A DNA stretch of 64,000 nt from Chloroflexota bacterium (GCA_023485685.1 JAMCZK010000054.1:2440-66439), one strand, 5' to 3'; counted from the first letter of the stretch, positions 6,206-59,479 are shown. Translations and numbers: made by a program. Notes: generated by a model not told the origin, from the sequence alone.

Positions 6206-7297
6206 TTACAGATAACGTTGCAGCCCTTTTTCCTTTAATCGCTCGATCACCTTGCGCAAATCCTGTGAACGTTCCTTGGAACAAATCAAAAGCACATCGC
6301 CGGTATCCACCACCACCAGGTCTTGGATGCCAACGGTAACGATCATCCGATCCTGTCCGTTGCTGTGTACCAGCGAATTACGGCTATCGAAATCCAGATG
6401 TTTTTCATGCCGCACCAAATTGCCGCTGCTGTCTACGCCAAGCACTTCGAACAACGAAGACCACGAGCCTACGTCGTTCCATTCCATGCCCTTGGCCGGG
6501 ATCACGGCCACCTCTTTGGCGTGTTCCATGATACCGTAGTCGATGGTCTGGGCGGCGATGCGCGGCCATTCGTAATTCCGCACCTTCTCGAAATCAGGCT
6601 GGCCCCATGCCTGGCTGATCTTTTCCAGCGCGGCATGCAGCTTCTTCATGTGATGGGCAAACTCAGCCCAGATGCGCTCCACTTTCCAAATGAACATACC
6701 GGAATTCCAGGCGTAGAACCCCGCCTCCAGCATTTTTTGCGCCTCGACAGCATCCGGCTTTTCCTTGAAACGCTGGACTTTGTATGCAGGGTAACCGCCT
6801 GTCTCACCCAGCGATTCGCCCATTTGGATATAACCGTATTGAGTAGCTGCATAAGTGGGGTCGATGCCCAAGGTGACCAAGTGATCCTTGAGCGCAAGTT
6901 CTTTGGCGGCCAGCAGGTGGCTGCGGAATTCGGCCTCGTTACCGATGTAATGGTCGGCGGTAAGCACGGCCATCACGGCGTCGGGCGCCCGCCTGTGCAA
7001 AAAGGCCGCGGCCAATCCAATAGCCGGAGCGGTGCCGCGCGGCTGCGGCTCCAGCAAGAAATTCTCTTCCAGCAGCTCCGGCGCCTGCTTGCACAGCTCG
7101 ATACTGTGCTCCTGATTGGTTACCACCAAAATACGCTCCGGCGGGAACAGAGACTCTAGCCGGTGCACAGCGATTTGGAACAGCGTGTGGTCGTCGATGA
7201 GCTGCAGCATTTGCTTGGGGCGCGATTGGCGCGACAACGGCCACAAGCGTGTGCCGCCGCCCCCAGCCATGATCACTGCGTAATAATTATCAGTCAA
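6206..7297 (-). CDS. Mannose-1-phosphate guanylyltransferase (nucleotidyltransferase only, no PMI/cupin domain)
   Basis: 363 aa. N-terminal AVIMAGGGGTRLWPLSR sugar-nucleotidyltransferase motif, then LEPQPRGTAPAIGLAA and GYIQMGE. Confidence 0.85.
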   Translation of the reverse strand: MTDNYYAVIMAGGGGTRLWPLSRQSRPKQMLQLIDDHTLFQIAVHRLESLFPPERILVVTNQEHSIELCKQAPELLEENFLLEPQPRGTAPAIGLAAAFLHRRAPDAVMAVLTADHYIGNEAEFRSHLLAAKELALKDHLVTLGIDPTYAATQYGYIQMGESLGETGGYPAYKVQRFKEKPDAVEAQKMLEAGFYAWNSGMFIWKVERIWAEFAHHMKKLHAALEKISQAWGQPDFEKVRNYEWPRIAAQTIDYGIMEHAKEVAVIPAKGMEWNDVGSWSSLFEVLGVDSSGNLVRHEKHLDFDSRNSLVHSNGQDRMIVTVGIQDLVVVDTGDVLLICSKERSQDLRKVIERLKEKGLQRYL

Positions 7298-17043: not shown

Positions 17044-20000
17044 ATGCTATTAGCCTCCTTCAAGGGGCAAGACCCTCTCAAATCCAAGGATTTAACGAGA
17101 GGCGGTGAGTCGCGGCGCCAGGACGCAAGCGGCGCCGAAGGCAACCACACCGAGGAACTGGCAGCCTTGGCTCTGGCTGGCGCCAGTATTGTGTCCAGCC
17201 TGGAGCTGGGCAAGGTGTTGCAGGTCGTGGCGCAGCAATTCGCCAACCTGCTGGACGTGCAAGTTTGTATCCTGGCGGATTGGCGGCCCAATCCCGGGGG
17301 CATCAAAGCCCACACCACATTCGTCAATCCCAGGGCCCCCAAGTTGCCACGCGGGTACAAGCCAAGCTCGCTGGCCGAAAGTTTGGGGTTGACTCAGGTC
17401 GTTGAGCAGACCCGGCCAGTACAAAAACGCTCAGACGACCCGCTGCTCCCGGAGAAAGAAAAGCGGGCATTCAAGAAGACAGGCATTACCAGCCTGCTAC
17501 TCTTGCCATTGATCGCCCAGAGCAAGACCACGGGTCTGGTGGAATTACAGGACACGCGCGGGCCGCGCGATTTCAGCGAGCGGGAAATCTATTTGGCGCA
17601 GACCTTGTGCCAGCAGGCAGCGATCGCAATTGAAAACGCCAGACTATTCGAAGCTACTAGACGTCAGCTGCAGGAACTCACCCTGCTGCACCAGGTTTCC
17701 ATGGCGGCCACCGAAGCCACCAACGAAGACGAACTGATTGAAAGAGCCACCCAATTGATCCATGAGAACTTTTACACGGACAATTTCGGCATCCTGCTTC
17801 TTGAGAAAGATGGCACGGAGTTACATGAGCATCCGTCTTACAAATCCGGAAAGCTCCAGGGGAGGCTCACCATCCCCCTAGGCCGGGGCGTTACCGGCCA
17901 AGTCGCGTCTTTAGGCGTGTCGCTAAGGGTGGGTGATACGCGCAAAGACGCGAACTATTTAAATTACGATGCAGACTCTTTATCGGAGCTCTGCGTCCCG
18001 CTGAAAATTGGCGGTCGCGTGATCGGCGTGGCGAATGCCGAAAGCAAGAAGCTGAACCATTTCACGGAAAAAGACGAGCGTCTGTTGCTCACACTGGCCG
18101 GGCAGTTGGCCAGCGGCATCGAACGGCTGCGGAATGCCGCTGCCGAGCGCCAGCGGGCCAAGCAGCTTGGGGTCCTCAACAAGCTGGCCGGCGAAATGAG
18201 CGGAGTGCTGGACCGCGAGAAGCTGTTCAAGGTCGTGGTCGAGCGGCTGAACAAAGAAATGAATTACGTTTCGACCGACATTTCGCGCGTGGATGAAGAA
18301 AGCCGCGAGTATGTGGTTGAAGCGGTCAGCGGCACGTTTGCCCCGCTTGTCTCCAAAGAAGGCTACCGGCAGTCCTTCGGCGTCGGCCTGCTGGATATCG
18401 CCGCCAAATCCGGCGAGCCAGTCGTAGCCAATAACGTGCACGAACAACCGAATTACAAATTAGTGGCCGGTCACGAGATGATCAATTCCGAATTGATTAT
18501 CCCCATCAAGATTTACAAACGGGTGGTCGCGCTGCTGAACATTGAAAGCAACGAATTGAACGCCTTCGATAAATATGAAGTGACCGCGTTGACCACTCTT
18601 TGTGATCAGATCTCGATAGCCCTGGAAGGCATCAGCCTGTTTGATTCGACGCGACGCCAATTGCAAGAGCTGACCGTCTTGCACGCAATTACCCACGCGG
18701 CCGTGAATGCGAAGGATGAGGATGACCTGCTTGAGCGCGCCACGGAGATCATCGGCGCCAGCATCTATCCAGATCAATTCGGCTTCCTGATGCTGGATGA
18801 GGATGCGCAATTCCTGACGGTGAACCGCTGCTATCGGGGTGTAAACGGCGAATTGCACGGACGCAAATTCGCTGTCTCGCAGGGCATCGCCGGGCAGGTG
18901 GCCGCTACCGGGAAACCCTGGCGGGTTCCCGACGTGAGCAAAGAGCCTAATTATTTCCTGGTGAATCCGTCCATGCGCTCAGAACTCTGTGTGCCCATCC
19001 TGGGGAATGGGAACCGGGTGCTGGGCGTGATCAACGCCGAGAGCGGTCAACTCGACGCGTTCACGGAAGCGGACATGCGCCTGCTGAATACAATCGCGGG
19101 GCAACTGGGCACTGCCATTGAGAAATTGCGCCTATTTGAATCGGAACAGAAGCAACGTGAGCAGTCAGAGACCCTGCGCGAAGTTGCCGCCATCCTGGGA
19201 AGCGCAACCGATAGCTCGCGGGTGCTCGACTTGATCCTGGATCAACTCAAGCGCGTGGTGCCTTTCGATAGCGCATCCGTCCAGATCCTCAAAGAGGATA
19301 GCCTAAGCATTCGCGCAGTTGCCGGAACCCTTGACCCATCAATCATCGGATACGAATTGCCCATCAAAGACGATAAGCTCGCTCACCCCATGCTTTATGA
19401 GCACCGCACTGTATTGTATGAAGATATCGCCAATCATCCGGATTGGCTGCACGCACCGGGAGTCTCCGGCGTCAAATCCTGGATCGGCGCACCCCTGATT
19501 GTGCGCGGTGAATGCATCGGCGTGCTCACCGTGGATGGGTATGAAGCCCACCAATTCAGTGCGGCCGACGCCCAGTTGGTCTCCTCCTTCGCCATTCATG
19601 CGGGTATTGCATTGGAAAACGCGCGGTTACTCGAAGAAGCCGAGGACGCCTACGTGCAGACAGTTAGCGCGCTGGCCAGCGCCATCGACCTACGCGACAG
19701 CTACACCAGCGGCCACAGCCAGCGACTGGCCGATCTAGCCGTCAGGATTGGACAGCAAATGGGCTGCGAGGACGAAGAACTCGAGGCGATTCGTTGGGGA
19801 GCGCTGCTGCACGACATCGGCAAGATTGGTGTTCCGGATGATATCCTGCGGAAGCCCAGCTCCCTGGAAAGCCACGAAATGGAGATTATGCGTCAGCATC
19901 CGGAAATCGGGGCGAGAATCGTGGAACGGGTGAAGAACCTGACCGCAGTAGCGCCCATCATTCGCGCCCACCAGGAGCGCTTCGATGGGACCGGCTACCC

Positions 20001-20196
20001 AGACGGTCTACGCGCCAACGCCATCCCCAAGATTGCCCGCATAATCAGCGTTGCGGATGCCTACGTGGCGATGACTGATGAGCGCGTCTACCGCAAAGCC
20101 CGCAGCCATGAGGCAGCACTAACCGAAATCCGGCGTTGCGGCGGGACTCAATTTGATCCGGCTGTGGTGGACGCTTTCCTAAAGACATTTAGTTAG
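17044..20196 (+). CDS. Multi-GAF (about 4) HD-GYP protein, probable c-di-GMP phosphodiesterase
   Basis: 1050 aa. Repeated GAF modules are separated by ENARLFE..RRQLQELT(L/V)LH linkers. C-terminal HD-GYP motifs HSQRLADLA, LLHDIGKIGVPD, HQERFDGTGYPDGL. No obvious RBS at 17044, so the start is uncertain. Confidence 0.88.
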   Translation: MLLASFKGQDPLKSKDLTRGGESRRQDASGAEGNHTEELAALALAGASIVSSLELGKVLQVVAQQFANLLDVQVCILADWRPNPGGIKAHTTFVNPRAPKLPRGYKPSSLAESLGLTQVVEQTRPVQKRSDDPLLPEKEKRAFKKTGITSLLLLPLIAQSKTTGLVELQDTRGPRDFSEREIYLAQTLCQQAAIAIENARLFEATRRQLQELTLLHQVSMAATEATNEDELIERATQLIHENFYTDNFGILLLEKDGTELHEHPSYKSGKLQGRLTIPLGRGVTGQVASLGVSLRVGDTRKDANYLNYDADSLSELCVPLKIGGRVIGVANAESKKLNHFTEKDERLLLTLAGQLASGIERLRNAAAERQRAKQLGVLNKLAGEMSGVLDREKLFKVVVERLNKEMNYVSTDISRVDEESREYVVEAVSGTFAPLVSKEGYRQSFGVGLLDIAAKSGEPVVANNVHEQPNYKLVAGHEMINSELIIPIKIYKRVVALLNIESNELNAFDKYEVTALTTLCDQISIALEGISLFDSTRRQLQELTVLHAITHAAVNAKDEDDLLERATEIIGASIYPDQFGFLMLDEDAQFLTVNRCYRGVNGELHGRKFAVSQGIAGQVAATGKPWRVPDVSKEPNYFLVNPSMRSELCVPILGNGNRVLGVINAESGQLDAFTEADMRLLNTIAGQLGTAIEKLRLFESEQKQREQSETLREVAAILGSATDSSRVLDLILDQLKRVVPFDSASVQILKEDSLSIRAVAGTLDPSIIGYELPIKDDKLAHPMLYEHRTVLYEDIANHPDWLHAPGVSGVKSWIGAPLIVRGECIGVLTVDGYEAHQFSAADAQLVSSFAIHAGIALENARLLEEAEDAYVQTVSALASAIDLRDSYTSGHSQRLADLAVRIGQQMGCEDEELEAIRWGALLHDIGKIGVPDDILRKPSSLESHEMEIMRQHPEIGARIVERVKNLTAVAPIIRAHQERFDGTGYPDGLRANAIPKIARIISVADAYVAMTDERVYRKARSHEAALTEIRRCGGTQFDPAVVDAFLKTFS

Positions 20197-32282: not shown

Positions 32283-32400
32283 TCCCGTAGGGGAGAGTCT
32301 TAGACCCTCCCGCATCTCTTGGCTAGCCTGCTCAAGGCGCCGCCTTGAGCGAAGCGAACGGGGTTAGCTTTGCTAACCGTGAGGGTTGTTTGCTACACCC
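32283..32400. repeat. Cluster of GC-rich hairpins, including a partial copy of the GTCTTAGACCC element
   Basis: CCCGTAGGGGAGAGTCTTAGACCCTCCCGC resembles CCGTAGG(A/G)GCGGGTCTTAGACCCGCCC at 51703-51728 and 52398-52424. Perfect palindromes CTCAAGGCGCCGCCTTGAG and GGTTAGCTTTGCTAACC follow. Confidence 0.6.
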
Positions 32401-48540: not shown

Positions 48541-49791
48541 TTAGTCTCTGCAGTTCGCTAACTTGCGTTCCAAGCGCGCCAGGCGATGCTCCAATAGCGG
48601 CTGCCAATAGGCGCGTTCATAACCGGGTGTCCTGGCGGCCTCAATTACCTCAATAGCATTGTGTGTGTATCGCAAAGCTGCCGTGTAATCTCGCGCCCGA
48701 TGCTCGTAGTATTTGGCAATTTCCACGTGGGCATAAACCTGGCCCTCGGCTGCCGCCTGTTCCCACAGCTGCAATGCGGCTTCGTAATCACCCCGCCGCC
48801 GAAATAAATAGCCCAGGCTTTCGACCAGCCTGTAATGCACATCTTTGGGGAGATCCATCGACAGGGTGCTCCGAAAGATTTGAATGGCATCTTCGGCAAA
48901 ACCCAGATCGACGTAGAGCCGGCCAATCGCGTAAAGTTCGCTGTGGTGAGCGGCCTCATCCAAGGGTGCCGCAAGCTTGGAGGCAAGGTAATTCAGCAGA
49001 GAGGCCATGCTGAGCACATCCATGCTGTTGTGATAGAAGACGCCGGCCAGCGGGCGGGCGTCCCCCGTGTGCAGGTAATCGATATAGATCTGGGGGATCA
49101 TCCAGCCGGGGATGTCTTCCTGGCTGCGGCGTATGCCCAGGAGTTGGACCTCAAGATCACCCAGCGCCCTGCTCGGCAGAAAGTCTTTCCAAAGGCGGCG
49201 GGCGAGGTGGAGTAAATCGAGGTGCGGCAAGCCACGAAAGGGCTGTTGGGCTCCGTTGGTCAGGTAACGGCTGTGTAAGAGCGGCAGATCGAAGCTTTTC
49301 CCGTTGAAAGTGACCAGCGCGTCCTCAGGTGAAACCAAACGGTTCAGCGCCTCCAGCATGGCGCGTTCCTCGATAGGCTCGCGCAGGAAATATTGCTTCT
49401 GGCGGAAACCCCCGCCTTCGAAGCGGCCCAAGCCGACCAGGAATGCCAGGGTTCCACTGCCCCAAAGACCCGTACTTTCGGTATCCAGGAAGAGAAAACG
49501 CTCGGGAGGGAACAGGGCGACACGGTTGTCGGCGGCCCATATGGCTAATTTGTCTATGGCGGCCGGGAAGCGCAGCGTCTTGGCGCCATGCAACTCGTCG
49601 GCAGGAATAAAGCGCTCGACTAAAAAGGCTTCGCCAAATTCGGTTTGCTGGGCCTCGCCCCCGACCACCGACTCAATGGGAAATTCAACGCGCCGCGGCG
49701 CGGGCTGCAGATTCTTTGCGCCCAACTGCACACCCAGAGCCTTCAATCGATCCGACAAGCTGGTCATAGCGGCATTATATGAAAAATCCAC
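48541..49791 (-). CDS. RNase H-like (YprB/MrfB-type) exonuclease with C-terminal TPR repeats
   Basis: 416 aa. Exonuclease motifs FLFLDTESTGL, LVTFNGKSFDLPLL and YHNSMDVLS, then TPR-like repeats. Lies downstream of a YprA/MrfA-like helicase, as in the Bacillus yprA-yprB (mrfAB) pair. Confidence 0.75.
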   Translation of the reverse strand: MDFSYNAAMTSLSDRLKALGVQLGAKNLQPAPRRVEFPIESVVGGEAQQTEFGEAFLVERFIPADELHGAKTLRFPAAIDKLAIWAADNRVALFPPERFLFLDTESTGLWGSGTLAFLVGLGRFEGGGFRQKQYFLREPIEERAMLEALNRLVSPEDALVTFNGKSFDLPLLHSRYLTNGAQQPFRGLPHLDLLHLARRLWKDFLPSRALGDLEVQLLGIRRSQEDIPGWMIPQIYIDYLHTGDARPLAGVFYHNSMDVLSMASLLNYLASKLAAPLDEAAHHSELYAIGRLYVDLGFAEDAIQIFRSTLSMDLPKDVHYRLVESLGYLFRRRGDYEAALQLWEQAAAEGQVYAHVEIAKYYEHRARDYTAALRYTHNAIEVIEAARTPGYERAYWQPLLEHRLARLERKLANCRD

Positions 49792-49825: not shown

Positions 49826-50030
49826 CGTCATTGCGAGGAGCATTGCGACGCGTTGCGGCGCAAGCGGACGAAGCAAACTCGAATCCAAAAGACTGAGTGG
49901 CAGGGCTGGTTGGCGTAAATCCACATAGCGATCACGAATTACGACAATCCTAACTGGCTAAACTTGAGCGTCCTTTGAGATTGCTTCGTCCGCTGCCATG
50001 GCTTAGCCATGGCGTGCTCCTCGCAAGGAC
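49826..50030. repeat. Composite MITE-like repeat filling the helicase/exonuclease spacer
   Basis: Left end GTCATTGCGAGGAG (49826-), right end CTCGCAAGGAC (50020-50030). Internal GGACGAAGCAAACTCGAATC and its inverted partner GAGATTGCTTCGTCCGC. Confidence 0.65.
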
Positions 50031-50046: not shown

Positions 50047-52848
50047 TTAACGCGTTCCAATCAACGCCTCCAACAGAGCCAGTGTTTCGCGTTTGCTACC
50101 TTGCCCCTGCTCCCCACCCGGCCCTACGCAGGAAGGGCAGCCATCCTGGCAGCCGCATTCGTGGACGAGCTCATACGCTGCGCGTATGAGCTCGTCATGG
50201 ATCTCAAAAAGGCGCTGGCTGAAGCCCATGGCATCACCCATCTGGTCGAAGACCAGCACGACAGGCGCCCCCTCTGCCAAATCTGACTTGGGATCAGAAA
50301 AAACGCCCAGATCGCGCGGGTCGCACATCAGATACAGGGGCGCCAGATGCTGCAGCACAAAGGACAATCCCGCCAGCCCGCTGCGAATGCGCACAATGGT
50401 TTCGGCGCGGCGATGGCAATTGCGGCAAAGGGTTACCAGGTTTTCCAGACGATTAGCTTCCTTCGGCGATGCAAATGTGCGGAATGGAATTTTGTGATGC
50501 ACATCGTGCGGTCGAAAAGAGGCATTTTCGTGGCCGTTTTCGGGCAGACCGCAAACCTGGCAGGTGTATTGATCGCGGGCGCGCACCACCTCGCGGATCG
50601 CGTTCCAGTTAGGGCCATATTCATTGGGGTCATTGGTCCACAAGCCGCGCTCGCGCAGGTCGTCCACAGTGGCTTCACTGAGCGATAGCCAATAGCCGAA
50701 GGTGTTAAGTTCCATGGGCGGCAGATCCAGTTCCCCTCCGCCCGGCTTTTCCATTCCGGACCACTGGATCTTTTCGTAACCAATAATTTCCTGAGTGATA
50801 TTCAATTCGCCAAAGTGTTTAGTTCCCCCGCGCACCGGCGCGCTGTTTTTTTCTTCGACCAGCGAAACGGTGCTGCGACTCTTGGGCACCGTGTAGTAAT
50901 CCGCTTCGATAGGTCGCAGGTAAGCGACATGTTCGTCGAGATCCAGCTTGTCGACGAAATAGGTGGCGCCATCGTGAATATAGATGGCATCGGGATGCAC
51001 CAGCCACATGGCGCCGAATGGATCCACCTCACCCACCAGCCGCCAGCCCTCTTCGGTCTGCGCCTGAATCACCACCGAATCAGAACCCACACCGCGCAGA
51101 CTCACCCCGCGGCTGGGTTGCCCCTCCGCCATCCAAAAATATTTATCGCCCGACACGTGCAGTTCATTACTTTCGGCCAAGACATTCAGAAATTCTTCGA
51201 CTCGTTCACCCGGGATAGAGCCGAAATTTTCACCTTTAGTGAATGGTAATTCGAAAGCTGCGCAGCGCAGATGAGACAGCAGGATCAACACATTGTCCGG
51301 GTTGATCAGCGCATGTTCCGGCGTGCGGCCCATCAGATAATCGGGATGGCGCGCCAGGAATTGATCCAGGGGATTCGAAGAAGCGACCAGCAGCGCCACC
51401 GAGGCATCCGCCCCGCGGCCGGAGCGGCCGGCTTGCTGCCAGGTCGCGGCGATCGAGCCGGGATACCCCGCAAGCACGGCGGCGCCCATGCCGCCGATAT
51501 CCACGCCGAGTTCCAGGGCGTTGGTTGCCACCACGGCGCGCAGTTCCCCGGAGCGCAGGCCGGCTTCGATGGCGCGGCGCTCGTTGGTGAGATAGCCGCC
51601 GCGGTAACCGCGGATGGCTGAAGTCCTCACCCCCGGCCCCTCTCCATCTTCAATGGAGAGGGGTGCCTTGACATTAGGTTGGGAATCGCGTGTGTTCGCA
51701 TCCGTAGGAGCGGGTCTTAGACCCGCCCTCGCCGCCGTTTGCGGCGGCGAAAAAGAATTTACGTTTGGTGCCGCCTCGCGCAAAGACTTCAGCATCACCT
51801 CCACCATGCGGCGAGTCCGGCCAAATAAGATAGTCTGCACGTCGTAAGCCAACAGGTCCGAAACCAGCCTCACGGATTCCTGCGCCAGGCTGGCGCGCAG
51901 GCCGAGTTCGGGGTCGACGATGGGCGGGTTGTAGATGACGAAATTGCGCGGGCCGCGCGGCGCGCCGTCGCGGTCGATCACCATCACCGGCTGCTCGACC
52001 AATTTCTCAGCCAACTCCTGCGGGTTGGCAATAGTGGCCGAGGCCATCACGAATTGAGGCCTGGCTCCATAGAATTTCAACAATCGCGAAAGACGCCGCA
52101 GGACATTGGCGACATGCGAGCCGAATACGCCGCGGTAACTGTGCATTTCGTCGATGACCACGTAGCGCAAGTTGCCAAAGAACTCCGCCCACTGGGTGTG
52201 CATGGGCAGGATGCCGTAATGCAGCATATCGGGGTTGGTGATCAGCAACCGAACCCGTTTACGGATGCTGCTGCGGTGAGAGGAGGGCGTGTCGCCGTCG
52301 TAGGTGGCTACAGAGATGGGCCTCACCCCCGGCCCCTCTCCATCTTCTATAGAGAGGGGTGCCTTGACATTAGGTTGGGAACCGCGCGTATCCGCATCCG
52401 TAGGGGCGGGTCTTAGACCCGCCCGCTTCGCCGCAAGCGGCGAAGCATCCGATTCCTTTAAGGCCACGGCTTCAAGCCATGTTTCCAATTCATTCTTTTG
52501 GTCATACGCTAGCGCCTTCGTGGGAAACAGATACAACGCTCGCGCCTGCGGGTCGCACAGCAGCGCATCCAGCACCGGCAGGTTGTAGCACAGGGTCTTG
52601 CCGCTGGCTGTGCCGGTAACCACCGCCACATTCTGCCCCGCCTGCAGCAGGTCCCAGGCTTGCGCCTGGTGGCTGTACAGCTGGCTGTAGCCAAGTTTGG
52701 CGAAGGCGGCGGCAATGGCGGGATGGATATTCGGCGGCAGTGGCCGGAAGGCAGCCGGGCGGGCAGCCTCCTGGTGCCAGTGGGCGATATTGCCGCCTAC
52801 GGTGGGTTCAGCCTTCCAGTGAGCGAGGAGCTTGTTTAGGTTGTCCAA
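50047..52848 (-). CDS. YprA/MrfA-like DEAD/DEAH helicase with a C-terminal DUF1998 zinc domain, an embedded HNH motif and two repeat-derived in-frame insertions
   Basis: 933 aa. Helicase motifs VTGTASGKT, VVIDEMHSYRG, ASATIANP, VATNALELGVDIG, QQAGRSGRG. C-terminal CGCQDGCPSC cluster. HNH-like CQVCG...HHKIP...N...LCRNCHRRAE. Duplicated 42-aa segments. Confidence 0.85.
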   Translation of the reverse strand: MDNLNKLLAHWKAEPTVGGNIAHWHQEAARPAAFRPLPPNIHPAIAAAFAKLGYSQLYSHQAQAWDLLQAGQNVAVVTGTASGKTLCYNLPVLDALLCDPQARALYLFPTKALAYDQKNELETWLEAVALKESDASPLAAKRAGLRPAPTDADTRGSQPNVKAPLSIEDGEGPGVRPISVATYDGDTPSSHRSSIRKRVRLLITNPDMLHYGILPMHTQWAEFFGNLRYVVIDEMHSYRGVFGSHVANVLRRLSRLLKFYGARPQFVMASATIANPQELAEKLVEQPVMVIDRDGAPRGPRNFVIYNPPIVDPELGLRASLAQESVRLVSDLLAYDVQTILFGRTRRMVEVMLKSLREAAPNVNSFSPPQTAARAGLRPAPTDANTRDSQPNVKAPLSIEDGEGPGVRTSAIRGYRGGYLTNERRAIEAGLRSGELRAVVATNALELGVDIGGMGAAVLAGYPGSIAATWQQAGRSGRGADASVALLVASSNPLDQFLARHPDYLMGRTPEHALINPDNVLILLSHLRCAAFELPFTKGENFGSIPGERVEEFLNVLAESNELHVSGDKYFWMAEGQPSRGVSLRGVGSDSVVIQAQTEEGWRLVGEVDPFGAMWLVHPDAIYIHDGATYFVDKLDLDEHVAYLRPIEADYYTVPKSRSTVSLVEEKNSAPVRGGTKHFGELNITQEIIGYEKIQWSGMEKPGGGELDLPPMELNTFGYWLSLSEATVDDLRERGLWTNDPNEYGPNWNAIREVVRARDQYTCQVCGLPENGHENASFRPHDVHHKIPFRTFASPKEANRLENLVTLCRNCHRRAETIVRIRSGLAGLSFVLQHLAPLYLMCDPRDLGVFSDPKSDLAEGAPVVLVFDQMGDAMGFSQRLFEIHDELIRAAYELVHECGCQDGCPSCVGPGGEQGQGSKRETLALLEALIGTR
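51625..51750. repeat. Multi-hairpin repeat of about 126 bp inserted in frame in the helicase gene (copy B)
   Basis: CCTCACCCCCGGCCCCTCTCCATCTTCAATGGAGAGGGGTGCCTTGACATTAGGTTGGGA...CCGTAGGAGCGGGTCTTAGACCCGCCC plus a terminal hairpin. Near-identical to 52321-52446. Encodes ...AGLRPAPTDANTRDSQPNVKAPLSIEDGEGPGVR. Confidence 0.85.
52321..52446. repeat. Multi-hairpin repeat of about 126 bp inserted in frame in the helicase gene (copy A)
   Basis: Same element as 51625-51750, in the same orientation and reading frame. Encodes ...AGLRPAPTDADTRGSQPNVKAPLSIEDGEGPGVR. Confidence 0.85.
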
Positions 52849-52943: not shown

Positions 52944-53185
52944 ATTACACCGGTGCTTGACAGGTTACGGGAAAGTAGAGCCTGTTTCGCGCTTAAACTG
53001 TGCCAAGGAGCGAGAGAGAGGTTACACCGATCCTTGACAAGTTCGAGCTTCCTGTCAAGTTGTTGTGGTTTTTGTGGGTGGGGGTGTACCAAACAGCTTG
53101 ACAAGCTTCCCCTAAGTGCAACGACCTGTTATGTGTAATGTGCAATTTCAGGGGAGACCACGATTACACGTTGACAAGTTACACA
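52944..53185 (+). repeat. Four iteron-like direct repeats, consensus (G/A)TTACAC-N(0-6)-CTTGACAAGTT
   Basis: TTGACA at 52957, 53034, 53098 and 53171 (spacing 77/64/73 bp). Three are preceded by TTACAC(C); the copy at 53098 has GTGTACC instead. An inverted partial copy CCTGTCAAGTT lies at 53051-53061. Confidence 0.7.
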
Positions 53186-53283
53186 TTGGATATTTAGGCA
53201 GCATGTTAAAGTTCAACCTTTGGGCACCTGCAGAATGCGGGCAACGGAACCCAAAGGATTCAGGAAGCTGATTACCGATTGCG

Positions 53284-53303
53284 ATTAACGCACAGATTTA
53301 AGG
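53284..53303 (+). repeat. Left copy of the direct repeat bracketing the MTase-ATPase-nuclease operon
   Basis: ATTAACGCACAGATTTAAGG. The 12-mer CACAGATTTAAG (53291-53302) recurs exactly at 57824-57835, and the ATTAA prefix is shared with a 2-nt indel. Confidence 0.65.
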
Positions 53304-53439
53304 AAACGGGAAGGGGATGTCAAGGGGTTGGTATGAGCGCTAAAAATATCAAGCTATTCACAATTTTCGACACATCCTATCAGGAACGTGAACTCAGGGC
53401 ATTATAATTAGATAGCAGGAGGGCATATCTCTCTAGCCA

Positions 53440-54411
53440 ATGCGAATTCCCAAATCGGATCACAAGACCCAATTAGGCAAGTTTTTCCAAGGGGATTCAG
53501 TTGAGTTGCTGAACGCTGCCTTGGGCCAGAGTTTAAAAGGCAAGGTTCAGTTGATTCTAACGTCACCTCCTTTCCCATTAAATAATAAAAAAAGCTACGG
53601 CAACTTAAATGGGAACGAATATAAAAAGTGGTTTATTGATTTAGCACCCTTATTTGCCAACCTGTTGACCGAAAATGGGTCGATAGTAATAGAGATGGGC
53701 AATGCTTGGGAGCACCGAAGACCAATTCAGTCGATGTTGCACCTCGAATCGCTCATGGGATTCGTTAAAAAGAAAAAAACGGGGCTTCGATTGATTCAAC
53801 AATTCATTTGCTATAACCCATCGAGGCTTCCTTCTCCCGCTGAGTGGGTAACTATACGCCGAATCCGTCTAACAGATAGCTTTACACATGTCTGGTGGAT
53901 AGCAAAAACCGATTATCCAAAGGCTGACAATAAAAAGGTTACCCGCCCTTATAGCAAAAGCATGAAAAAACTTATCGAAAGAAATAGTTTCAACCATGGT
54001 GAAAGACCATCAGAGCATGTTATTAGCGAAAAGGGGTTTTTATATAGACACAAAGGAAGTATTGCACATAACGTCTTCGAGCTTGAACAGATGGACACGA
54101 CGCGTGAGGTCCGTCTGCCTAACGCTTTCAGCCTTTCGAATACATCATCTAATGATTTCTTCTCAAGAAAATGTAGAGATCGCGGAATCACTCCTCACCC
54201 CGCTCGAATGCCTTCGGGGTTAGTTGCATTTTTTGTCAAATTACTAACCGATCCAAAAGATTATGTGCTTGATCCATTCGCAGGCAGCAATACAACCGGC
54301 TATGTGGCCGAAAATCTAGGTAGACGTTGGCTTTCCATTGAAACCAACCCTGAATATGCAAAACAATCTAGAATTCGACTCTCAGATCCAATATTGAAGA
54401 AAAGGGAATAA
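53440..54411 (+). CDS. Beta-class N4/N6 DNA methyltransferase (SPPF motif IV, suggesting N4-cytosine)
   Basis: 323 aa. Motif IV LILTSPPFPL near the N-terminus, motif I VLDPFAGSNTTGYVAE near the C-terminus (order IV...I indicates beta class, N6_N4_Mtase family). AT-rich codon usage. Confidence 0.9.
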   Translation: MRIPKSDHKTQLGKFFQGDSVELLNAALGQSLKGKVQLILTSPPFPLNNKKSYGNLNGNEYKKWFIDLAPLFANLLTENGSIVIEMGNAWEHRRPIQSMLHLESLMGFVKKKKTGLRLIQQFICYNPSRLPSPAEWVTIRRIRLTDSFTHVWWIAKTDYPKADNKKVTRPYSKSMKKLIERNSFNHGERPSEHVISEKGFLYRHKGSIAHNVFELEQMDTTREVRLPNAFSLSNTSSNDFFSRKCRDRGITPHPARMPSGLVAFFVKLLTDPKDYVLDPFAGSNTTGYVAENLGRRWLSIETNPEYAKQSRIRLSDPILKKRE

Positions 54412-54420
54412 GAAAAAGTT

Positions 54421-56451
54421 ATGACTGACGCCACATTGAGTTTTACTGACGAATTAGCAAAGATTTCCAAGATTGACCTCTTCAAGAGAGGTAAAGATGG
54501 GGCCTTAGCCACTGGAACCTATGTAGGGAGACCTTTCCAATTGGATTACAGTTTAGCCCTGTTATTAGTTGCTGATGCCTGGAAGCAAAAAGTTAAAGGT
54601 ATTCCTCAAGGGTCATTTTTGCTTGCATATTACGAGAATGAACAAAACATCGAAGAAACACTATTGCTAAGAGTTCTTGGACCATGCCCGCTTCCAACCG
54701 ATAAGGATGTTATTAGCTCAATGATCGAATATTACAAAGATAATTTAAAAACAAGTGGGACTGGGAGCCAACTGGACACGTTTACCAGGTACGAGTTTAG
54801 CTTTTCGGGTTTAGAAACCCGCATCCTTGGAACTTTCTACAAAGATGAAAATGGGAAGGTTAACTTCGGTGCAGATGTTGAAAATTTCTATAGTGCACAT
54901 AATTATCAAGTTGTTAAACCCAGCGAGATGGTGCTTGAGTATATAGTTAATTTTAGAGAAGGCGAAGTTACAAGCAAGGTTACCGATATAGAAATAGGAC
55001 GCGTTCGATATAGTTCTTCACGCCGTTTTCAAGCCCAAGAAGAACATGTTCCAGTTTTTGTAAGCCCAAACGATTTTTTGGGCAAAAGAACAGCACTTTT
55101 TGGGATGACTAGAACCGGAAAATCCAATACTGTAAAAAAAATCATCCAGGCTACTGTTGCAATGGGCAAAAAGGCCCCTGGCGACTTAAATGAAAATGTT
55201 GGAAAAGTTGAAGAAAACCTGAACCACTTTACGAAGGATGGTTTTCCAAAATACCCGTCTGGACAAATTGTTTTTGATATCAACGGTGAATACGCAAATG
55301 CAAATTTGCAGGATGAAGGAACAGCAATTTTCGAAATGTTCAAAGACCAGGTTACTAGATACAGCGTAATACAAAAGCCAGGTTTTAAGGTAATGAAGGT
55401 CAATTTTTATAGAGGCATCCTGTCCGGCTTTGAATTAGTCAAGTCTCACCTAATGCAAAGTGGCGGTAACTATATTGAAAGCTTCAGAGCGGTTGATCTA
55501 ACAAGACCAATTGACTTCGATACCAACAAATCGGCCAAAGTACGCTACGAGAGGACGATCGCAGCATATCTTTGCTGTTTGTTCCGTGCAGGATTCAAAG
55601 CGCCGAATGGATACAAAATCAAATTTGAAGGGAACAAGGATCTAAATCAACTAGTAAGGGGTGGAGATGTTGACCCCAGCGAGGGAATTACCTTAGAAGA
55701 CGCAGTAAGTTGGTTTACGACCATTTGGGATAATTACGAGGTTGACGAATACTTTGCGGACTATAAGCGAAAGAAAGGACATGAATGGGCGGATGAAAAT
55801 CTGAAGGCAATCCTGGTATTTCTTACACGCAAACGCCAACCAGGTGGCAACGTAAATGTGGACGGTTATATTAAATTACGGGGCATAATGAATTTGCACA
55901 CAGAAACAGTTGACAAACCTTTTGAGCAAGAAATCATTGATGAATTACGCTTAGGAAAAATTGTAATAGTGGATTTGTCTCAAGGTGATCCAAACATTCA
56001 ATCTTTGTATTCAGAAAGGATTTGTAGACATGTCTTCGCAGATTGCATGGATCGCTTCATCAACACAAAGCCTAACAACTTCTTGCAATTCTATTTTGAA
56101 GAAGCCCACAATCTTTTCCCCAAAAAAGAAGAGAAGGATCTAAGTCAGATTTATAACCGTCTTGCAAAAGAAGGTGCAAAACTAAATATCGGATTAATTT
56201 ACGCGACTCAAGAGGTGAGTTCTATAAGTGCAAATATTTTAAAGAACACACAAAATTGGTTTATAGCACACCTAAATAATGAAGACGAAACACGCGAGAT
56301 AAAGAAATACTGTGACTTTGGTGATTTTACGAGCGCCTTGATAAAGTTTAGCGCAAACAGCGACAAGGGTTTCGTTCGAATGAAAACCTATTCAAACCCT
56401 TTTGTAGTCCCAGTCCAAATTGACCGTTTTCCCAAGAACATTGGTGATTAA
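54421..56451 (+). CDS. HerA/FtsK-superfamily (DUF87-like) ATPase
   Basis: 676 aa. Walker A LFGMTRTGKSNTVKKII, VFDINGEYAN (HerA-type D-x-x-GEY), Walker B region FLQFYFEEAHNLFP, LIYATQEVSSISANILKNTQNWFIAHLNNEDE. N-terminal barrel-like region. Starts 9 nt after the MTase stop. Confidence 0.8.
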   Translation: MTDATLSFTDELAKISKIDLFKRGKDGALATGTYVGRPFQLDYSLALLLVADAWKQKVKGIPQGSFLLAYYENEQNIEETLLLRVLGPCPLPTDKDVISSMIEYYKDNLKTSGTGSQLDTFTRYEFSFSGLETRILGTFYKDENGKVNFGADVENFYSAHNYQVVKPSEMVLEYIVNFREGEVTSKVTDIEIGRVRYSSSRRFQAQEEHVPVFVSPNDFLGKRTALFGMTRTGKSNTVKKIIQATVAMGKKAPGDLNENVGKVEENLNHFTKDGFPKYPSGQIVFDINGEYANANLQDEGTAIFEMFKDQVTRYSVIQKPGFKVMKVNFYRGILSGFELVKSHLMQSGGNYIESFRAVDLTRPIDFDTNKSAKVRYERTIAAYLCCLFRAGFKAPNGYKIKFEGNKDLNQLVRGGDVDPSEGITLEDAVSWFTTIWDNYEVDEYFADYKRKKGHEWADENLKAILVFLTRKRQPGGNVNVDGYIKLRGIMNLHTETVDKPFEQEIIDELRLGKIVIVDLSQGDPNIQSLYSERICRHVFADCMDRFINTKPNNFLQFYFEEAHNLFPKKEEKDLSQIYNRLAKEGAKLNIGLIYATQEVSSISANILKNTQNWFIAHLNNEDETREIKKYCDFGDFTSALIKFSANSDKGFVRMKTYSNPFVVPVQIDRFPKNIGD

Positions 56452-56453
56452 AA

Positions 56454-57791
56454 ATGGCGTATTTAAGCAAAAAAGGTAGGAGGCCAGCAGAGTGGGCAAG
56501 TAAATCAGCACATGGACATATTATTAAAGATACAACAATCCAAGAATTTCTGAAACACTGCAATCTTCCAAAAAGAGCTGAAGACGTTTCACTGGCAAAT
56601 GATCAATTGATTGACGTTCAAGAAATAACTAACAATCCAATTCAACACGTAATTGCTGTAGACAGCGGATACACAGAAGTCCCCGTGCAGGTAGAGTTTC
56701 CTACAGCGACTATCTGCTTCTTCCAATTTGGCGCGTTAATTTTCAGTCTAGAAGACTTAGATAGTCTGGAACAACAACCATTTATTGATCCTGAAGACAT
56801 GGCAAAGCTCAAAAGGATTCAAAGGCTGAAGTTTACGTTGCCAGTTAGAAACGTCGCATTGCAAGGAGAGGCGAACTTAATTAATAGCGTTAGACGCTCA
56901 GTCTATAATTTCTTCATACAGGATATAGATGGAAGCAATCTAATTACAACTTTAAAATGGCTGGTTTTTGAAGAGTACTCCAAACCATCTTTGGTTTGGC
57001 AATTAGCCAACTGTCCAATTTGCTTCACACCAAGAGTTCAGTTACAAAGGCAGATGATTTCTAAAGACTACACTTTTAAATGCAGCCAATGCGGGGGAGA
57101 AATATTTTTGACAGATGTTTTTCGGTTGCATGAAGCAGTTGACAACGAGCTTGGAGCTGGCGGAATCCTTGGTTATGTCGCCACAGCATTTGAGCAGATC
57201 ATCATAGCTCATCTGATACGCCTTATTCTTGAAACAAAGCCGAACCTCCTAAGCCACGTGCTATTCATAAAGGATGGTCCGCTTGCGTTCTTTGGACAAA
57301 CAGCTAATCTCCACAAGCCGATGAGAGCATTGGTATGTTATTTACTAGATAATCAAAATCTATTTATGGCAGGACTGGAAAAAAGCGGAGGGTTTGTAGA
57401 GCATGCGGACGAAGTGTCACGCGTTTTAAACCCTGGGCAAATTATTCTATTGGATAATGAATATATTTATAAATATATTCTGCCGGGAAAAGCCGATAAC
57501 CAAGATGCTTATGGCAGTACCACGTATTACGCAAACAAAGTGATTTTCAAAACTAAAAGCGAGCGAATGTATGTCATTAACGTGCCTACGAGGGTAATGC
57601 TCCAAGCGCCCAAAGAAAACGATTTTCCTAACCTCCAAACAATTCTTGCAAATGTAGAAAAGTTAAAATGTGATATGTATGACGATGCTCTAATACCAGT
57701 TGCGCTGGTGAACAAATTAGTCTCCCTAGCCAACCATCCAAGTTCAAAGATACTACAGAAATTTGCGATTGGATCTATGGCGAACAAATAG
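56454..57791 (+). CDS. NurA-like nuclease-domain protein with an inserted CxxC...CxxC zinc ribbon
   Basis: 445 aa. Starts 2 nt after the ATPase stop. Acidic/catalytic-type motifs HVIAVDSGYTEV, LFIKDGPLAFFGQ and MAGLEKSGGFVEH resemble NurA D / DG / (G)xxKS motifs. Zinc ribbon CPICFTP...CSQCGGE (57012-57092). Confidence 0.6.
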   Translation: MAYLSKKGRRPAEWASKSAHGHIIKDTTIQEFLKHCNLPKRAEDVSLANDQLIDVQEITNNPIQHVIAVDSGYTEVPVQVEFPTATICFFQFGALIFSLEDLDSLEQQPFIDPEDMAKLKRIQRLKFTLPVRNVALQGEANLINSVRRSVYNFFIQDIDGSNLITTLKWLVFEEYSKPSLVWQLANCPICFTPRVQLQRQMISKDYTFKCSQCGGEIFLTDVFRLHEAVDNELGAGGILGYVATAFEQIIIAHLIRLILETKPNLLSHVLFIKDGPLAFFGQTANLHKPMRALVCYLLDNQNLFMAGLEKSGGFVEHADEVSRVLNPGQIILLDNEYIYKYILPGKADNQDAYGSTTYYANKVIFKTKSERMYVINVPTRVMLQAPKENDFPNLQTILANVEKLKCDMYDDALIPVALVNKLVSLANHPSSKILQKFAIGSMANK

Positions 57792-57818
57792 AATAAAAAA
57801 AACTAGTTTCATTTTCCC

Positions 57819-57836
57819 ATTAACACAGATTTAAGC
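57819..57836 (+). repeat. Right copy of the direct repeat bracketing the operon
   Basis: ATTAACACAGATTTAAGC, 28 nt after the NurA-like stop. See 53284-53303. Confidence 0.65.
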
Positions 57837-57896
57837 TCGATCACTTCGAGGGGCTAGTTTTTCCAGTCATGTTCCAGAGAAATTTTGTTAGTTGAG

Positions 57897-57985
57897 TCAC
57901 TTACTGACCACCATCCCCGCGCCTTCAACATCCGTCACCGGAAACTAAACGGGAAGCAGCGCACACTACTCTAGCGTTGACCAGC
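57897..57985 (-). pseudogene. Decayed duplicate of the 3' end of the beta-propeller gene (58406..)
   Basis: The minus-strand reading gives ...W-STLE*CALLPV*FPVTDVEGAGMVVSK*, against the intact gene end ...WHLETSSPRALLPVWSPITDIPGAGMVENK*. They share TCACTTA and the 13-mer CCACCATCCCCGC. There are two in-frame stops. Confidence 0.7.
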
Positions 57986-58022
57986 ACAGAGGAGCCGAGC
58001 GGTGAACCCAAATCAGGCATTG

Positions 58023-58307: not shown

Positions 58308-58405
58308 ATTTCCTCCATGGATTTATGGCGGATAATAATTTCACTCAAAATTACTTGTATCACAATTTGATTTTCGGCACCATATTCCACTAGCTTTTTG
58401 ATGGA

Positions 58406-59479
58406 TCACTTATTTTCCACCATCCCCGCCCCTGGAATATCTGTGATAGGAGACCAAACAGGTAATAGTGCGCGGGGACTAGAAGTCTCCAAATGCCATT
58501 GGTTTTCGGGATCTGCAACCTCCAGTATGAAGAGTTGGTAATTCCCCGTGCGCTGCGAATGGAACACGATGTACTTCCCATCCGGCGACCAGGTGGGGTT
58601 GCCGTCTTCGGAGGGGCTATCGGTGAGCTGCCGCAGGCCACTGCCATCCGCGCGCATCAGGTAGATATCCCCTTTGCCGCTGCGCCAGGACTCGAAAACG
58701 ATCCATTCTCCGTCGGGGGAAAACACGGGGCGCCAGTCGAGGCCGGGATCCTCCGTGAGCCGGGTCAGGTTGCTGCCGTCCACATCCATCACGTAGATCT
58801 CCGAGTTGCCATCGCGGCGCGTGGTGAAGGCAATGTGTTCGCCATCGGGCGACCAGTTCGGCTCGTAGTCATGGGCTTCCACGTCGGTGAGCTGCAGAAT
58901 ATCTTTGCCCGGCTCTCCGTTGGCCCCCACTTCGGCAATGAAGAGATCGCGGTTTTTATCGTGCTCTTTCATATATACAATGTACTTGCCATCCGGGGAA
59001 AAGGAGGGATAGCAATCGAATCCGGGCTGCGTGGTGAACTGCCATTGCTCAGGGTCAGGATCGACGGTCACCAGATAGACATCGCGCAACACATCCGAAT
59101 TGGGGATGCCATCGAAGGCGATCAGCTTGCCATCCCAAGACCAGACCGGCGCTTCGGCGAAGGTGTTCGCCAGGCCGCCGGTGAGGTTGTATTCGCCTGT
59201 GCCATCCGGCCGGATCAGCCAGACATCGCGTCTCCCGCCGTCGCTGGCGGTGAATGCAATCCAGCCCATATCGGCAAGCTCCAATGCCTTCTCCGAGGTG
59301 ATCGTGGCGACCGCTTCCGTGCGCTCCGGTGTGACCGTCTCGGCGCCCAGGGTCATTTCGGCGGCCACTTCTGTTTCGTCGCCAGTCACGATGGGCGTTC
59401 CGGCGGGAGCCGCACAGGCGGCAAGGATGAGGGGGAGAAGAATAAAAATGCGGAAATTACGCGTGCTTACCACACCCAC
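58406..59479 (-). CDS. TolB-like / PD40 beta-propeller lipoprotein
   Basis: Repeated PD40-type units (SPDG(K/E)(Y/W/H)I(V/A)F...D(I/V)Y(L/V)(M/V)). Lipobox LILAAC-A. The ORF-track start at 59665 lies inside a repeat element, so the start is placed at GTG 59479 (59473 also possible). Confidence 0.8.
   Translation of the reverse strand: MGVVSTRNFRIFILLPLILAACAAPAGTPIVTGDETEVAAEMTLGAETVTPERTEAVATITSEKALELADMGWIAFTASDGGRRDVWLIRPDGTGEYNLTGGLANTFAEAPVWSWDGKLIAFDGIPNSDVLRDVYLVTVDPDPEQWQFTTQPGFDCYPSFSPDGKYIVYMKEHDKNRDLFIAEVGANGEPGKDILQLTDVEAHDYEPNWSPDGEHIAFTTRRDGNSEIYVMDVDGSNLTRLTEDPGLDWRPVFSPDGEWIVFESWRSGKGDIYLMRADGSGLRQLTDSPSEDGNPTWSPDGKYIVFHSQRTGNYQLFILEVADPENQWHLETSSPRALLPVWSPITDIPGAGMVENK

Follow-up and report, generated by a model that had tools for sequence, protein, structure and literature searches.

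The present analysis deals with a 64,000-nt stretch of DNA from a Chloroflexota bacterium (GCA_023485685.1 JAMCZK010000054.1:2440-66439; hereafter the window, with positions counted from its first letter), in which a structured 126-nt element occurs twice inside mrfA, the gene for an MrfA/YprA-type superfamily 2 (SF2) helicase. We consider it the best explanation, with a probability of about 0.6, that the inserts are selfish structured-DNA passengers that settled in two tolerant loops of the helicase and are read through as disordered loops. Judged from its sequence, the element is by anatomy a mosaic in the manner of bacterial interspersed mosaic elements (BIMEs), composed of a repetitive extragenic palindromic (REP) module and a BoxC/PIT unit. 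In textbook accounts, REP sequences and BoxC/PIT triplex motifs belong between genes, and in-frame palindromic elements are regarded as a curiosity of Rickettsia. Here the two repeat types are fused and stand twice inside one conserved DNA-repair helicase, and a clade of Anaerolineales orthologues turns modules over at the same two loops. No description of such inserts in Chloroflexota was found in a limited search of the literature, which is not proof of novelty.

Results

A structured mosaic occurs twice in frame within mrfA

Between positions 50000 and 54500 there is one direct-repeat family, whose members at 51625-51746 and 52321-52442 (122 nt) are 89% identical and spaced by 696 nt. At the full length of 126 nt, 110/126 positions match (87%), and BLAST reports 93% identity over the first 104 nt. 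Since the spacing is divisible by 3, both copies fall in one frame; they lie on the same strand inside the mrfA ORF and comprise 42 codons each, which bears out the original prediction, made from the sequence alone, of two near-identical ~126-bp copies sharing orientation and frame in an MrfA-like helicase. Copy B, the first in gene sense, translates as ASPLAAKRAGLRPAPTDADTRGSQPNVKAPLSIEDGEGPGVR (aa 135-176) and copy A as SPPQTAARAGLRPAPTDANTRDSQPNVKAPLSIEDGEGPGVR (aa 367-408), the common frame reading ...AGLRPAPTDA(D/N)TR(G/D)SQPNVKAPLSIEDGEGPGVR..., and the tryptic peptides expected from the translated inserts include APLSIEDGEGPGVR and AGLRPAPTDADTR. The element had been described as stop-free on both strands, which is correct for one frame in three per strand (the sense frame in use and one antisense frame), while the other two frames contain stops.

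The helicase ORF (50047..52848, minus strand) is nonetheless single and uninterrupted and encodes 933 aa with the Pfam domains DEAD, Helicase_C, WHD_HRQ1, HNH and the MrfA Zn-binding domain. The closest solved structure is that of Bacillus subtilis YprA/MrfA (PDB 6ZNP, E = 3e-199), and homologues are found in metagenome-assembled genomes of Anaerolineales and other Chloroflexota. The window protein shows the whole feature set of MrfA/YprA, namely DEAD, Helicase_C, a winged helix, a C-terminal Zn-binding domain (DUF1998) and an adjacent MrfB-type exonuclease; the MrfB-like neighbor, which is likewise present in the orthologous loci, supports reading the host gene as an orthologue of mrfA. All invariant columns of the helicase family are kept, in agreement with the earlier view that the translated inserts do not interrupt the helicase.

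Three hairpins are predicted in each copy, as had been proposed, with RNA folds of -69.6 and -72.8 kcal/mol (z = -5.6 and -4.7; 0/200 shuffles fold as well) and z values of -6.3 and -4.7 for the DNA folds. In gene sense, the order of modules is M0 (a 9-bp GC hairpin), M1, a spacer of ~40 nt and a triplex motif (TM), M1 being read in that sense as GGGCGGGTC-TAA-GACCCGCCC-CTAC. The module with the CCCCTCTCC palindrome is the TM, whose nature went unrecognized in the first reading of the window. Modules were located with a finder for GTAG followed by a 9-bp GC palindrome and with a custom finder for purine-motif triplex architecture, for which 20 shuffles of the window served as the control. The features are as follows.

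51625..51750, minus strand: copy A, at insertion site 2 (aa 367-408), a 126-nt mosaic (repeat finder, translation)
52321..52446, minus strand: copy B, at insertion site 1 (aa 135-176), a 126-nt mosaic (repeat finder, translation)
51625..51663, minus strand: TM of copy A, CCCCTCTCC-ATTGAAGAT-GGAGAGGGG-CCG-GGGGTGAGG, with 9 Watson-Crick pairs and 9 allowed purine-motif triads (triplex finder)
52321..52359, minus strand: TM of copy B, CCCCTCTCT-ATAGAAGAT-GGAGAGGGG-CCG-GGGGTGAGG, with one stem mismatch (triplex finder)
51664..51703, minus strand: spacer of copy A, with TTCCCAACCTAATGTCAAGG, common only to copy B and to site 2 of the orthologous locus L001
52360..52399, minus strand: spacer of copy B (sequence comparison of the copies)
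51704..51728, plus strand: M1 of copy A, GTAG-GAGCGGGTC-TTA-GACCCGCCC, 1 mismatch (palindrome finder)
52400..52424, plus strand: M1 of copy B, GTAG-GGGCGGGTC-TTA-GACCCGCCC, perfect 9-bp stem (palindrome finder)
51729..51750, minus strand: M0 of copy A, TCGCCGCCG-CAAA-CGGCGGCGA, terminal GC hairpin (folds)
52425..52446, minus strand: M0 of copy B, GCTTCGCCG-CTTG-CGGCGAAGC, terminal GC hairpin (folds)
32285..32316, plus strand: degenerate solo M1 (CCGTAGGGGAGAGTCTTAGACCCTCCCGC), intergenic (repeat comparison)
50047..52848, minus strand: host gene mrfA, MrfA/YprA-type SF2 helicase (ORF, Pfam, structure match)
48541..49791, minus strand: mrfB/yprB-like partner gene downstream of mrfA, Pfam RNase_H_2 exonuclease with TPR

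The palindromes named in the original prediction are present in both copies, although the first of them carries one mismatch in copy B (CCCCTCTCT/GGAGAGGGG). No chance match is expected in the window for the pattern CCCCTCTCC...GGAGAGGGG, and GCGGGTCTTAGACCCGC has 5 matches on the two strands, at three places including a third copy with 3 mismatches, against 0.18 expected. The partial third copy is indeed intergenic, with coordinates now set at 32285-32316 rather than 32283-32312; it is 78-88% identical over 32 nt and belongs to an intergenic cluster with three hairpins.

The composite as a whole appears, from sequence searches, to be private to this gene lineage. Genome collections were scanned with one genome per GTDB species, the source genome not being among the GTDB representatives, and viral scans used IMG/VR contigs; a 20-mer of the spacer had 0 matches in the GTDB species genomes and 0 in the viral contigs. 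Rfam assigned no family to the region at permissive E-values or to 20 loci at gathering scores, a single match to Fibro-purF being discarded as noise (19 bits against a gathering score of 60). An exhaustive HMMER search with the 42-aa insert peptide against 1.84 billion representatives returned only two weak matches, P0121 and P0122. A profile search with the insert peptides also gave no match, but is uninformative, the same profile giving P0001 at E = 1.8e-20 locally. The idea that the composite is a widespread unit was rejected, as not one of the 123 wild M1 copies stands within 200 nt of a TM and the HMMER matches are confined to the two spurious ORFs. Instead of the single homogeneous element that was first assumed, the copies are mosaics whose modules can be separated and are distributed differently from one another.

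As a side observation, P0121 (657 aa) and P0122 (470 aa) are evidently spurious translations of long REP-like arrays, in which ...VLLVRARAGLKPAPTSASSGRG... is repeated; REP-like repeats evidently contaminate protein databases.

Module M1 is a REP-type palindrome with possible links to Y1 transposases

As far as sequence can tell, M1 is a REP-type palindrome. Both M1 modules have the anatomy expected of REPs, a short (20-40 nt), GC-rich imperfect palindrome behind a conserved GT[AG]G head, and GTAG followed by a 9-bp stem and a 3-nt loop occurs on the plus strand at only two sites in the 64 kb. The extragenic location of REPs is not shared by the 2 full copies, which are inside the mrfA ORF, and only the 1 degenerate copy at 32285-32316 is intergenic. 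When JGI metagenome contigs were queried with TCTWAGACCCGCYCCTACGG, the palindrome class turned up in 120 or more stretches, the flanks of which are unrelated, and 58/123 wild copies are the full perfect palindrome GTAGGGGCGGGTCT(A/T)AGACCCGCCCCTAC. M1 had 0 matches in the viral contigs of IMG/VR.

An ORF with the Pfam domain Y1_Tnp overlaps or adjoins the palindrome in 8/120 listed metagenome loci. In 7 of those 8, the palindrome lies within the Y1 ORF just past the HUH motif and is translated as ...HVHGLISLRDSVGAGLRPAPTT..., so that the transposase gene carries its own putative substrate hairpin in frame; the ORFs with an internal palindrome, which resemble those of REP-associated tyrosine transposases (RAYTs), are in L131, L142, L149, L159, L168, L169 and L178. 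Among the mrfA loci, L002 has between mrfA and mrfB a 231-aa gene (12744-13436) assigned by NCBIfam to "REP-associated tyrosine transposase" at 107.9 bits (cut-off 80), with 44-nt inverted repeats at 12793-12836 and 13394-13437 that are 82% complementary. The core of these repeats, CCGGCTAAAGCCTCGAsTCCAAAA (module M3, distinct from M1), recurs in the site-2 inserts of MrfA in L124, L125 and L126, and is absent from the window.

The original prediction called the element REP/MITE-like, MITE standing for miniature inverted-repeat transposable element, and only the first half of that term holds, with M1 having GTAG and a GC palindrome. Terminal inverted repeats (TIRs) were sought, and no inverted pair joins the ends of either copy (CCTCACCCCC... 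and ...GCGGCGGCGA). There is likewise no target-site duplication (TSD), the flanks being GAAGT and AAAAAG at one copy and ATGGG and ATCCG at the other; the empty sites in the orthologous loci L003 and L127 are too diverged for base-level resolution of a TSD. With neither TIRs nor a TSD, the element is not a classical MITE, and that reading was rejected.

Module TM is a triplex-type motif of wide distribution

TM is a BoxC/PIT-type intrastrand triplex motif, the triplex itself being predicted. The finder located exactly two motifs with 9 triads in the window, both in mrfA, and none in the 20 shuffles; each has a C-rich stem, a complementary G-rich stem and a mirror G-rich third stem with allowed triads only, copy A being free of mismatches and copy B having 1. 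Holder et al. (2015) gave the BoxC/PIT/TMECO pattern as CCCTCNCCC N3-6 GGGNGAGGG N3 GGGNGAGGG, with CCG as the second loop of TMECO type B, and reported that in vitro these elements adopt purine-motif triplexes, that in E. coli K-12 they lie without exception between genes and that they mark unusually rearranged loci (PMC4666352). The published pattern does not fit TM, whose stems are CCCCTCTCC/GGAGAGGGG/GGGGTGAGG and whose loop 1 has 9 nt, except for loop 2 (CCG, 3 nt). Because stem sequence and first loop differ, we file TM as the same kind of motif and not as TMECO. TM in the window also departs from the intergenic habit of such motifs, lying within the mrfA ORF.

The exact 21-mer GGAGAGGGGCCGGGGGTGAGG was found in at least 120 stretches of GTDB species genomes, from Bacteroidota, Planctomycetota, Chloroflexota, Acidobacteriota, several proteobacterial classes, Armatimonadota, Spirochaetota and others. 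The complementary CCCCTCTCC arm is nearly always present upstream, the flanks are unrelated, and inverted doublets are frequent. In IMG/VR, the 21-mer occurs in 119 stretches (L248-L366), and some viral contigs, e.g. L311 and L316, hold 4-5 copies, which makes viruses a possible vehicle for the spread of TM across phyla. A crude test for an open frame spanning the match over-calls coding context in GC-rich DNA, and therefore only cases with Pfam domains on both sides were used; by that standard, TM is read through in a polyketide synthase linker (L030), in HypF (L059) and, in an antisense frame, in an Lhr helicase of Metapseudomonas (L058).

A nuclease ORF of the DUF559 family lies within ~100 nt of TM in 6 of ~120 listed genome loci. 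In leucyl-tRNA synthetase, TM-DUF559-TM cassettes stand in frame at different positions in L010 (Bacteroidota, 6620-7100) and L055 (Gammaproteobacteria, 1700-2230), the DUF559 domain (PD-(D/E)xK, Vsr-like) being flanked by inverted TM units, and similar cassettes are found in an HsdM methylase (L111) and a Type ISP restriction enzyme (L024). Among the viral TM loci the linkage is weak (1/119). These cassettes suggest, as a lead, that a DUF559 nuclease is the mobilizing partner of TM, the window itself having none; a limited literature search found no link between DUF559 and the TM repeat.

The same two loops of MrfA are insertion hot spots

The inserts are, by sequence comparison, lineage-specific insertions into loops between secondary-structure elements of an otherwise intact helicase. 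The alignment with MrfA (6ZNP) falls into four blocks, with breaks at query residues 128-177 and 360-406, corresponding to MrfA 128-131 and 314-317, and at 735-823, which is the HNH domain. MrfA and many Anaerolineales orthologues of ~838 aa have 4-12 residues at the insert positions. Site 1 splits DEAD/RecA1 after PTKALAYDQ, which we take to be motif Ia, and before TYDGDT, where one insertion had been placed. Site 2 was thought to lie between the two RecA-like halves but is actually inside RecA2: it splits Helicase_C before RGYRGGY, and the Pfam match at 415-478 spans profile positions 45-108 only. The helix ahead of site 2 is presumably motif IV, from what is generally known of SF2 helicases. 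Neither insert is found in the orthologues P0005, P0006, P0011, P0012, P0015, P0020, P0024 and P0040, in which the invariant motifs are kept, and at the DNA level both sites are short and empty in L003 and L127. Being absent from MrfA and the ~838-aa orthologues, the inserts qualify as lineage-specific, as predicted.

An AlphaFold2 model, built on an alignment of 23 sequences and read for loop regions only (predicted local distance difference test, pLDDT, 62.9; predicted TM-score, pTM, 0.43), also shows the inserts as loops, with residues 132-175 and 363-409 as coil of pLDDT < 50 flanked by modeled helices and strands. Because the quality of this model is poor, surface-loop placement rests mainly on the MrfA alignment. 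Of the phrase "tolerated or exapted as surface loops", the low-confidence coil between secondary-structure elements fits the first part, and exaptation finds no support, given that the peptides differ freely.

Such inserts had been called unusual, but they are not rare in this clade: about half of 120 listed helicase orthologues exceed the base length of ~838 aa, and the aligned orthologues with inserts have repeat-derived ones at these two loops. The window was compared with 7 orthologous mrfA loci (8 loci in all). L001, an independent assembly in which aligned helicase residues are ~90% identical, has at the same position a site-2 element 96.7% identical to that of the window, while its site 1 holds a different mosaic, consisting of an M0-like GC hairpin and the same palindrome (GGCGGTTCTTAGACCCGCCCCTAC) followed by a spacer and a triplex-type unit (CCCCTGCCCCTT..AAGGGGAAGGGG-ACA-GGGGAAGGGG) that differ from those of the window. 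A nearly identical triplex-type unit stands at site 1 of L126, where the helicase has diverged further. In L124, the palindrome at site 1 is accompanied by a short spacer and by yet another, third variant of TM. M0 and M1 at site 1 are common to the window, L001 and L124, and the spacers and TMs differ. Both sites of L002 contain doublets of the form GTAG-hairpin ... hairpin-CTAC followed by a GGGGCCGGGGGTGAGG tail, and in L125 and P0008 a third site, close to the N-terminus, holds an extra module. Repeat-like peptides, e.g. tandem GEGRRGEV units, are also seen at the two loops of distant orthologues (56-59% identity).

In the 8 loci, TM/REP-like modules number 20 in 21.8 kb of mrfA and 6 in 153.6 kb of flanks, a ~20-fold ratio that is inflated by ascertainment and by the shared ancestry of some inserts. 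Several independent insertion events are evident from the sequences, and the same two mrfA loops are, on this comparison, clade-wide insertion hot spots.

The module at the third site (L125:~5140-5220, site 0) is ~60 nt long with two hairpins, TTGCGTyGG..CCGACGCGTyGGAGAACGG..CCGTTCTCC; it stands in frame after AKLGY in P0004/P0008 and is also part of the site-1 insert of P0007 (L126 site 1).

Constraint on the inserts is seen in DNA rather than in peptide

What is constrained in the inserts is most likely the DNA, through hairpin complementarity and synonymous near-identity, rather than the protein. The differences between the window copies are spread over codon positions 1, 2 and 3 as 6:3:7, so there is no sign of protein-level constraint on the peptide. 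Three base pairs of M0 differ between copies A and B, each of them compensated on both sides, and the stems of M1 and TM can be called invariant between the copies, beside arms with one mismatch in M1 of copy A (GAGCGGGTC) and in TM of copy B (CCCCTCTCT). When the window is compared with L001, third codon positions are 95.2% identical in the site-2 element and 67.7% identical across the gene, and the former value exceeds those of all 159 control windows (maximum 92.9%). Across orthologues, the insert peptides differ freely and the nucleotides are conserved at all three codon positions.

Compensatory pairs, synonymous-site conservation and the very stable predicted RNA folds (z = -4.7 to -5.6) also speak for an action of the hairpins in cis in the mRNA, where they might pause ribosomes, set the half-life of the message or serve as entry sites for RNase III. 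Such a role is nevertheless unlikely. As DNA, the stems are no less stable, and a palindrome can fold whichever strand carries it. In the RNA fold, nothing pairs with the conserved third arm of TM (GGGGTGAGG); the third strand of the triplex has no RNA counterpart, and RNA reportedly does not form purine-motif triplexes (PMC4666352). The modules moreover occur elsewhere in all orientations and contexts, mostly intergenic and in unrelated genomes, the Rfam searches yielded no family, and orthologues manage without the inserts.

It is quite unlikely that the ~42-aa segments, rich in Pro, Gly and Ala, have been exapted for a role in the helicase, for example as flexible tethers or as loops contacting a partner or DNA. 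The retention of the site-2 copy in two species whose proteins are ~90% identical over aligned residues, the recurrence of inserts at both loops in distant orthologues and the intact ORF would agree with such a role, but many close orthologues keep all invariant motifs without either insert, and from one lineage to another the peptides at a given site show no relationship. In addition, the copy differences show no bias to the third codon position, it is the nucleotides, synonymous sites included, that are conserved between species, and the segments are modeled as unstructured.

Other features of the window

Two observations concern the helicase and its upstream side. The HNH endonuclease domain (window 50380-50646, minus strand; aa 735-823) sits between the MrfA core and the Zn-binding domain, where B. 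subtilis MrfA has just 4 residues, and is present in all listed Anaerolineales orthologues. Directly upstream of mrfA is an island of low GC content (53000-58000; 38-44% GC versus ~58% on either side) with genes for an N6/N4 DNA methylase (53440-54411) and a HerA/DUF87-type ATPase (54421-56451), which looks like an acquired restriction or defense-type island; at its edge is a 75-nt direct repeat (57888-57962 and 58397-58471, 71% identity, spacing 509 nt). Farther away, a 300-nt direct repeat (16093-16392 and 16683-16982, 100% identity, spacing 590 nt) stands between two large regulator-like ORFs (12569-15802 and 17044-20196) and could be a recent duplication or an assembly artifact.

Discussion

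A plausible history of the inserts can be drawn from these findings. The modules would arrive by the routes that such repeats use elsewhere: for the REP-type modules, single-strand transposition of the HUH/Y1 (RAYT) type, and otherwise recombination among dispersed copies or gene conversion. Selection in mrfA would spare only insertions that keep the frame, bring no stop and fall in surface loops, and the inserts would persist because they landed in such positions. Each site probably held an older mosaic, and site 1 of the window was most likely overwritten from site 2 by ectopic conversion, for which a REP and TM mosaic already at site 1 would have supplied M1 and TM as anchors of homology. 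The basis for this history is that site 2 is common to the window and L001 and that site 1 in L001 and L124 already has M0 and M1 with another TM; ectopic conversion would explain the shared orientation and frame of the copies. A DNA triplex of the intrastrand purine-motif type could arise from the C-rich arm of TM, its complementary G-rich arm and the mirror G-rich third arm. The sequence of the element might be kept conserved by its DNA structures or through concerted evolution with master copies, and the same structures might destabilize the site, which would explain the rapid turnover of modules among orthologues. The inserted peptide itself is likely an unconstrained, disordered loop.

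Several points weigh against the selfish-passenger explanation. There are just two full copies of the composite, both in one gene, which leaves active transposition of the composite hypothetical. The window of 64 kb contains no Y1/RAYT gene and no DUF559 gene, and its M1 modules are without the second GTAG arm found in half of the wild copies. The lack of TIRs and TSDs is consistent with mobility of the Y1 type but is negative evidence only, and triplex formation by TM is a prediction. The synonymous-site conservation at site 2 could reflect a recent recombination tract instead of selection, one control window reaching 92.9%. The AlphaFold2 model is poor overall (pLDDT 62.9), so the low confidence of the loops is weak evidence, and the enrichment of modules in mrfA is subject to the inflation mentioned above.

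A purely local origin, in which an intragenic loop duplication or template-switch hairpins gave rise to the copies and no mobile or dispersed element took part, is very unlikely. Both full copies in the 64 kb are in one gene, and the composite with its spacer was found nowhere else in the collections searched, which would suit such an origin. M1 and TM, on the other hand, each occur at 120 or more unrelated places with unrelated flanks, M1 being also intergenic in the window itself; orthologues hold different combinations of modules at the same sites, including a TM common to divergent hosts; and the flanking helicase sequence is not duplicated. Within the selfish-passenger explanation, a local copy step is kept only for the second copy. 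That the inserts are artifacts of misassembly, mark a dead gene or are removed like inteins or introns is hardly credible: although repeats can mislead assemblers and the window holds a perfect 300-nt repeat elsewhere, L001, assembled independently from another sample, shows the site-2 insert at an identical position, the ORF is uninterrupted with all invariant family columns kept, no Rfam intron family was matched, and a 42-aa insert is, as inferred from the sequence, far too short for an intein and without its terminal residues, so that the intein/intron reading was rejected on size, motifs and Rfam alike.

A broader idea, which remains doubtful, is that a hitherto undescribed, cross-phylum population of structured-DNA selfish modules routinely colonizes ORFs in frame. 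TMs would then be the ends of small cassettes whose autonomous forms carry a DUF559 PD-(D/E)xK nuclease, GTAG palindromes would be tied to Y1 transposases with the palindrome in their own ORF, and the MrfA loops would be a preferred site of landing or retention, perhaps because the gene of a repair helicase tolerates, or is regulated by, internal DNA structures. Apart from this idea, if the in-frame occurrence of both repeat types described here holds, small structured repeats would generally contribute loop insertions and variation in length to bacterial proteins, a source that has been overlooked, and would also be a source of spurious "GEGPGVR / AGLKPAPT" peptides in protein databases, and the permissive MrfA loops would offer a natural experiment on the tolerance of intragenic non-B DNA. 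Two suggested links can be tested, that of the triplex motif with DUF559 nucleases and that of the GTAG palindrome with Y1 transposases.

Among known systems, REPs, BIMEs and REPINs resemble the element in several respects. M1 has a 5' GTAG head and a GC-rich imperfect palindrome; the modules occur singly, as inverted doublets (L002) or in mosaics with other motifs, as in BIMEs; there are no TIRs or TSDs; and at some of the metagenome loci listed (8/120) the palindrome stands at a Y1_Tnp ORF, a RAYT gene flanked by inverted repeats of the other module, M3, lying next to mrfA in L002. REPs are, however, extragenic by definition, whereas the modules of the window are inside an ORF and translated, and the window has no RAYT, while in the 7 metagenome loci the palindrome is inside the Y1 ORF and does not flank it. 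With BoxC/PIT/TMECO elements (Hoyne et al. 2000; Holder et al. 2015, PMC4666352), TM shares the three-arm architecture, the 9-nt stems, the 3-nt CCG loop 2 of TMECO type B, the frequent inverted doublets and the association with locally rearranged DNA. It differs in its stems (CCCCTCTCC/GGAGAGGGG/GGGGTGAGG, not CCCTCNCCC/GGGNGAGGG), in a loop 1 of 9 nt (5 if the stem is extended) versus 3-6, and in its setting, TMECO being found in Proteobacteria and intergenic in E. coli K-12, and TM here in Chloroflexota and intra-ORF. Bacterial MITEs such as Correia, ERIC and Nezha are similarly small and non-autonomous, are sometimes intragenic and can form in-frame fusions (PMC10969869), but the element is without the TIRs and TSDs that define them.

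The closest parallel in behavior is probably that with the Rickettsia palindromic elements (RPEs) of Ogata et al. (2000), which are palindromic repeats of ~100-150 nt fused in frame into unrelated ORFs of Rickettsia and translated as extra segments compatible with the fold, the gene staying active (PMC10969869). The inserts described here are likewise in-frame palindromic repeats of such a length (126 nt, 42 codons, with an open sense frame) that leave the gene undisrupted, and they stand at fold-compatible positions, with alignment breaks at MrfA 128-131 and 314-317. RPEs are homogeneous families present in dozens of genes per genome, whereas the insert of the window is a mosaic of REP-type and triplex-type modules in one gene with a clade-wide hot spot at two loops; the phylum is also another one, so that analogy and not membership is meant and homology is not expected. 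With these distinctions, the element of the window may be viewed as an analogous, Chloroflexota counterpart of the Rickettsia palindromic elements.

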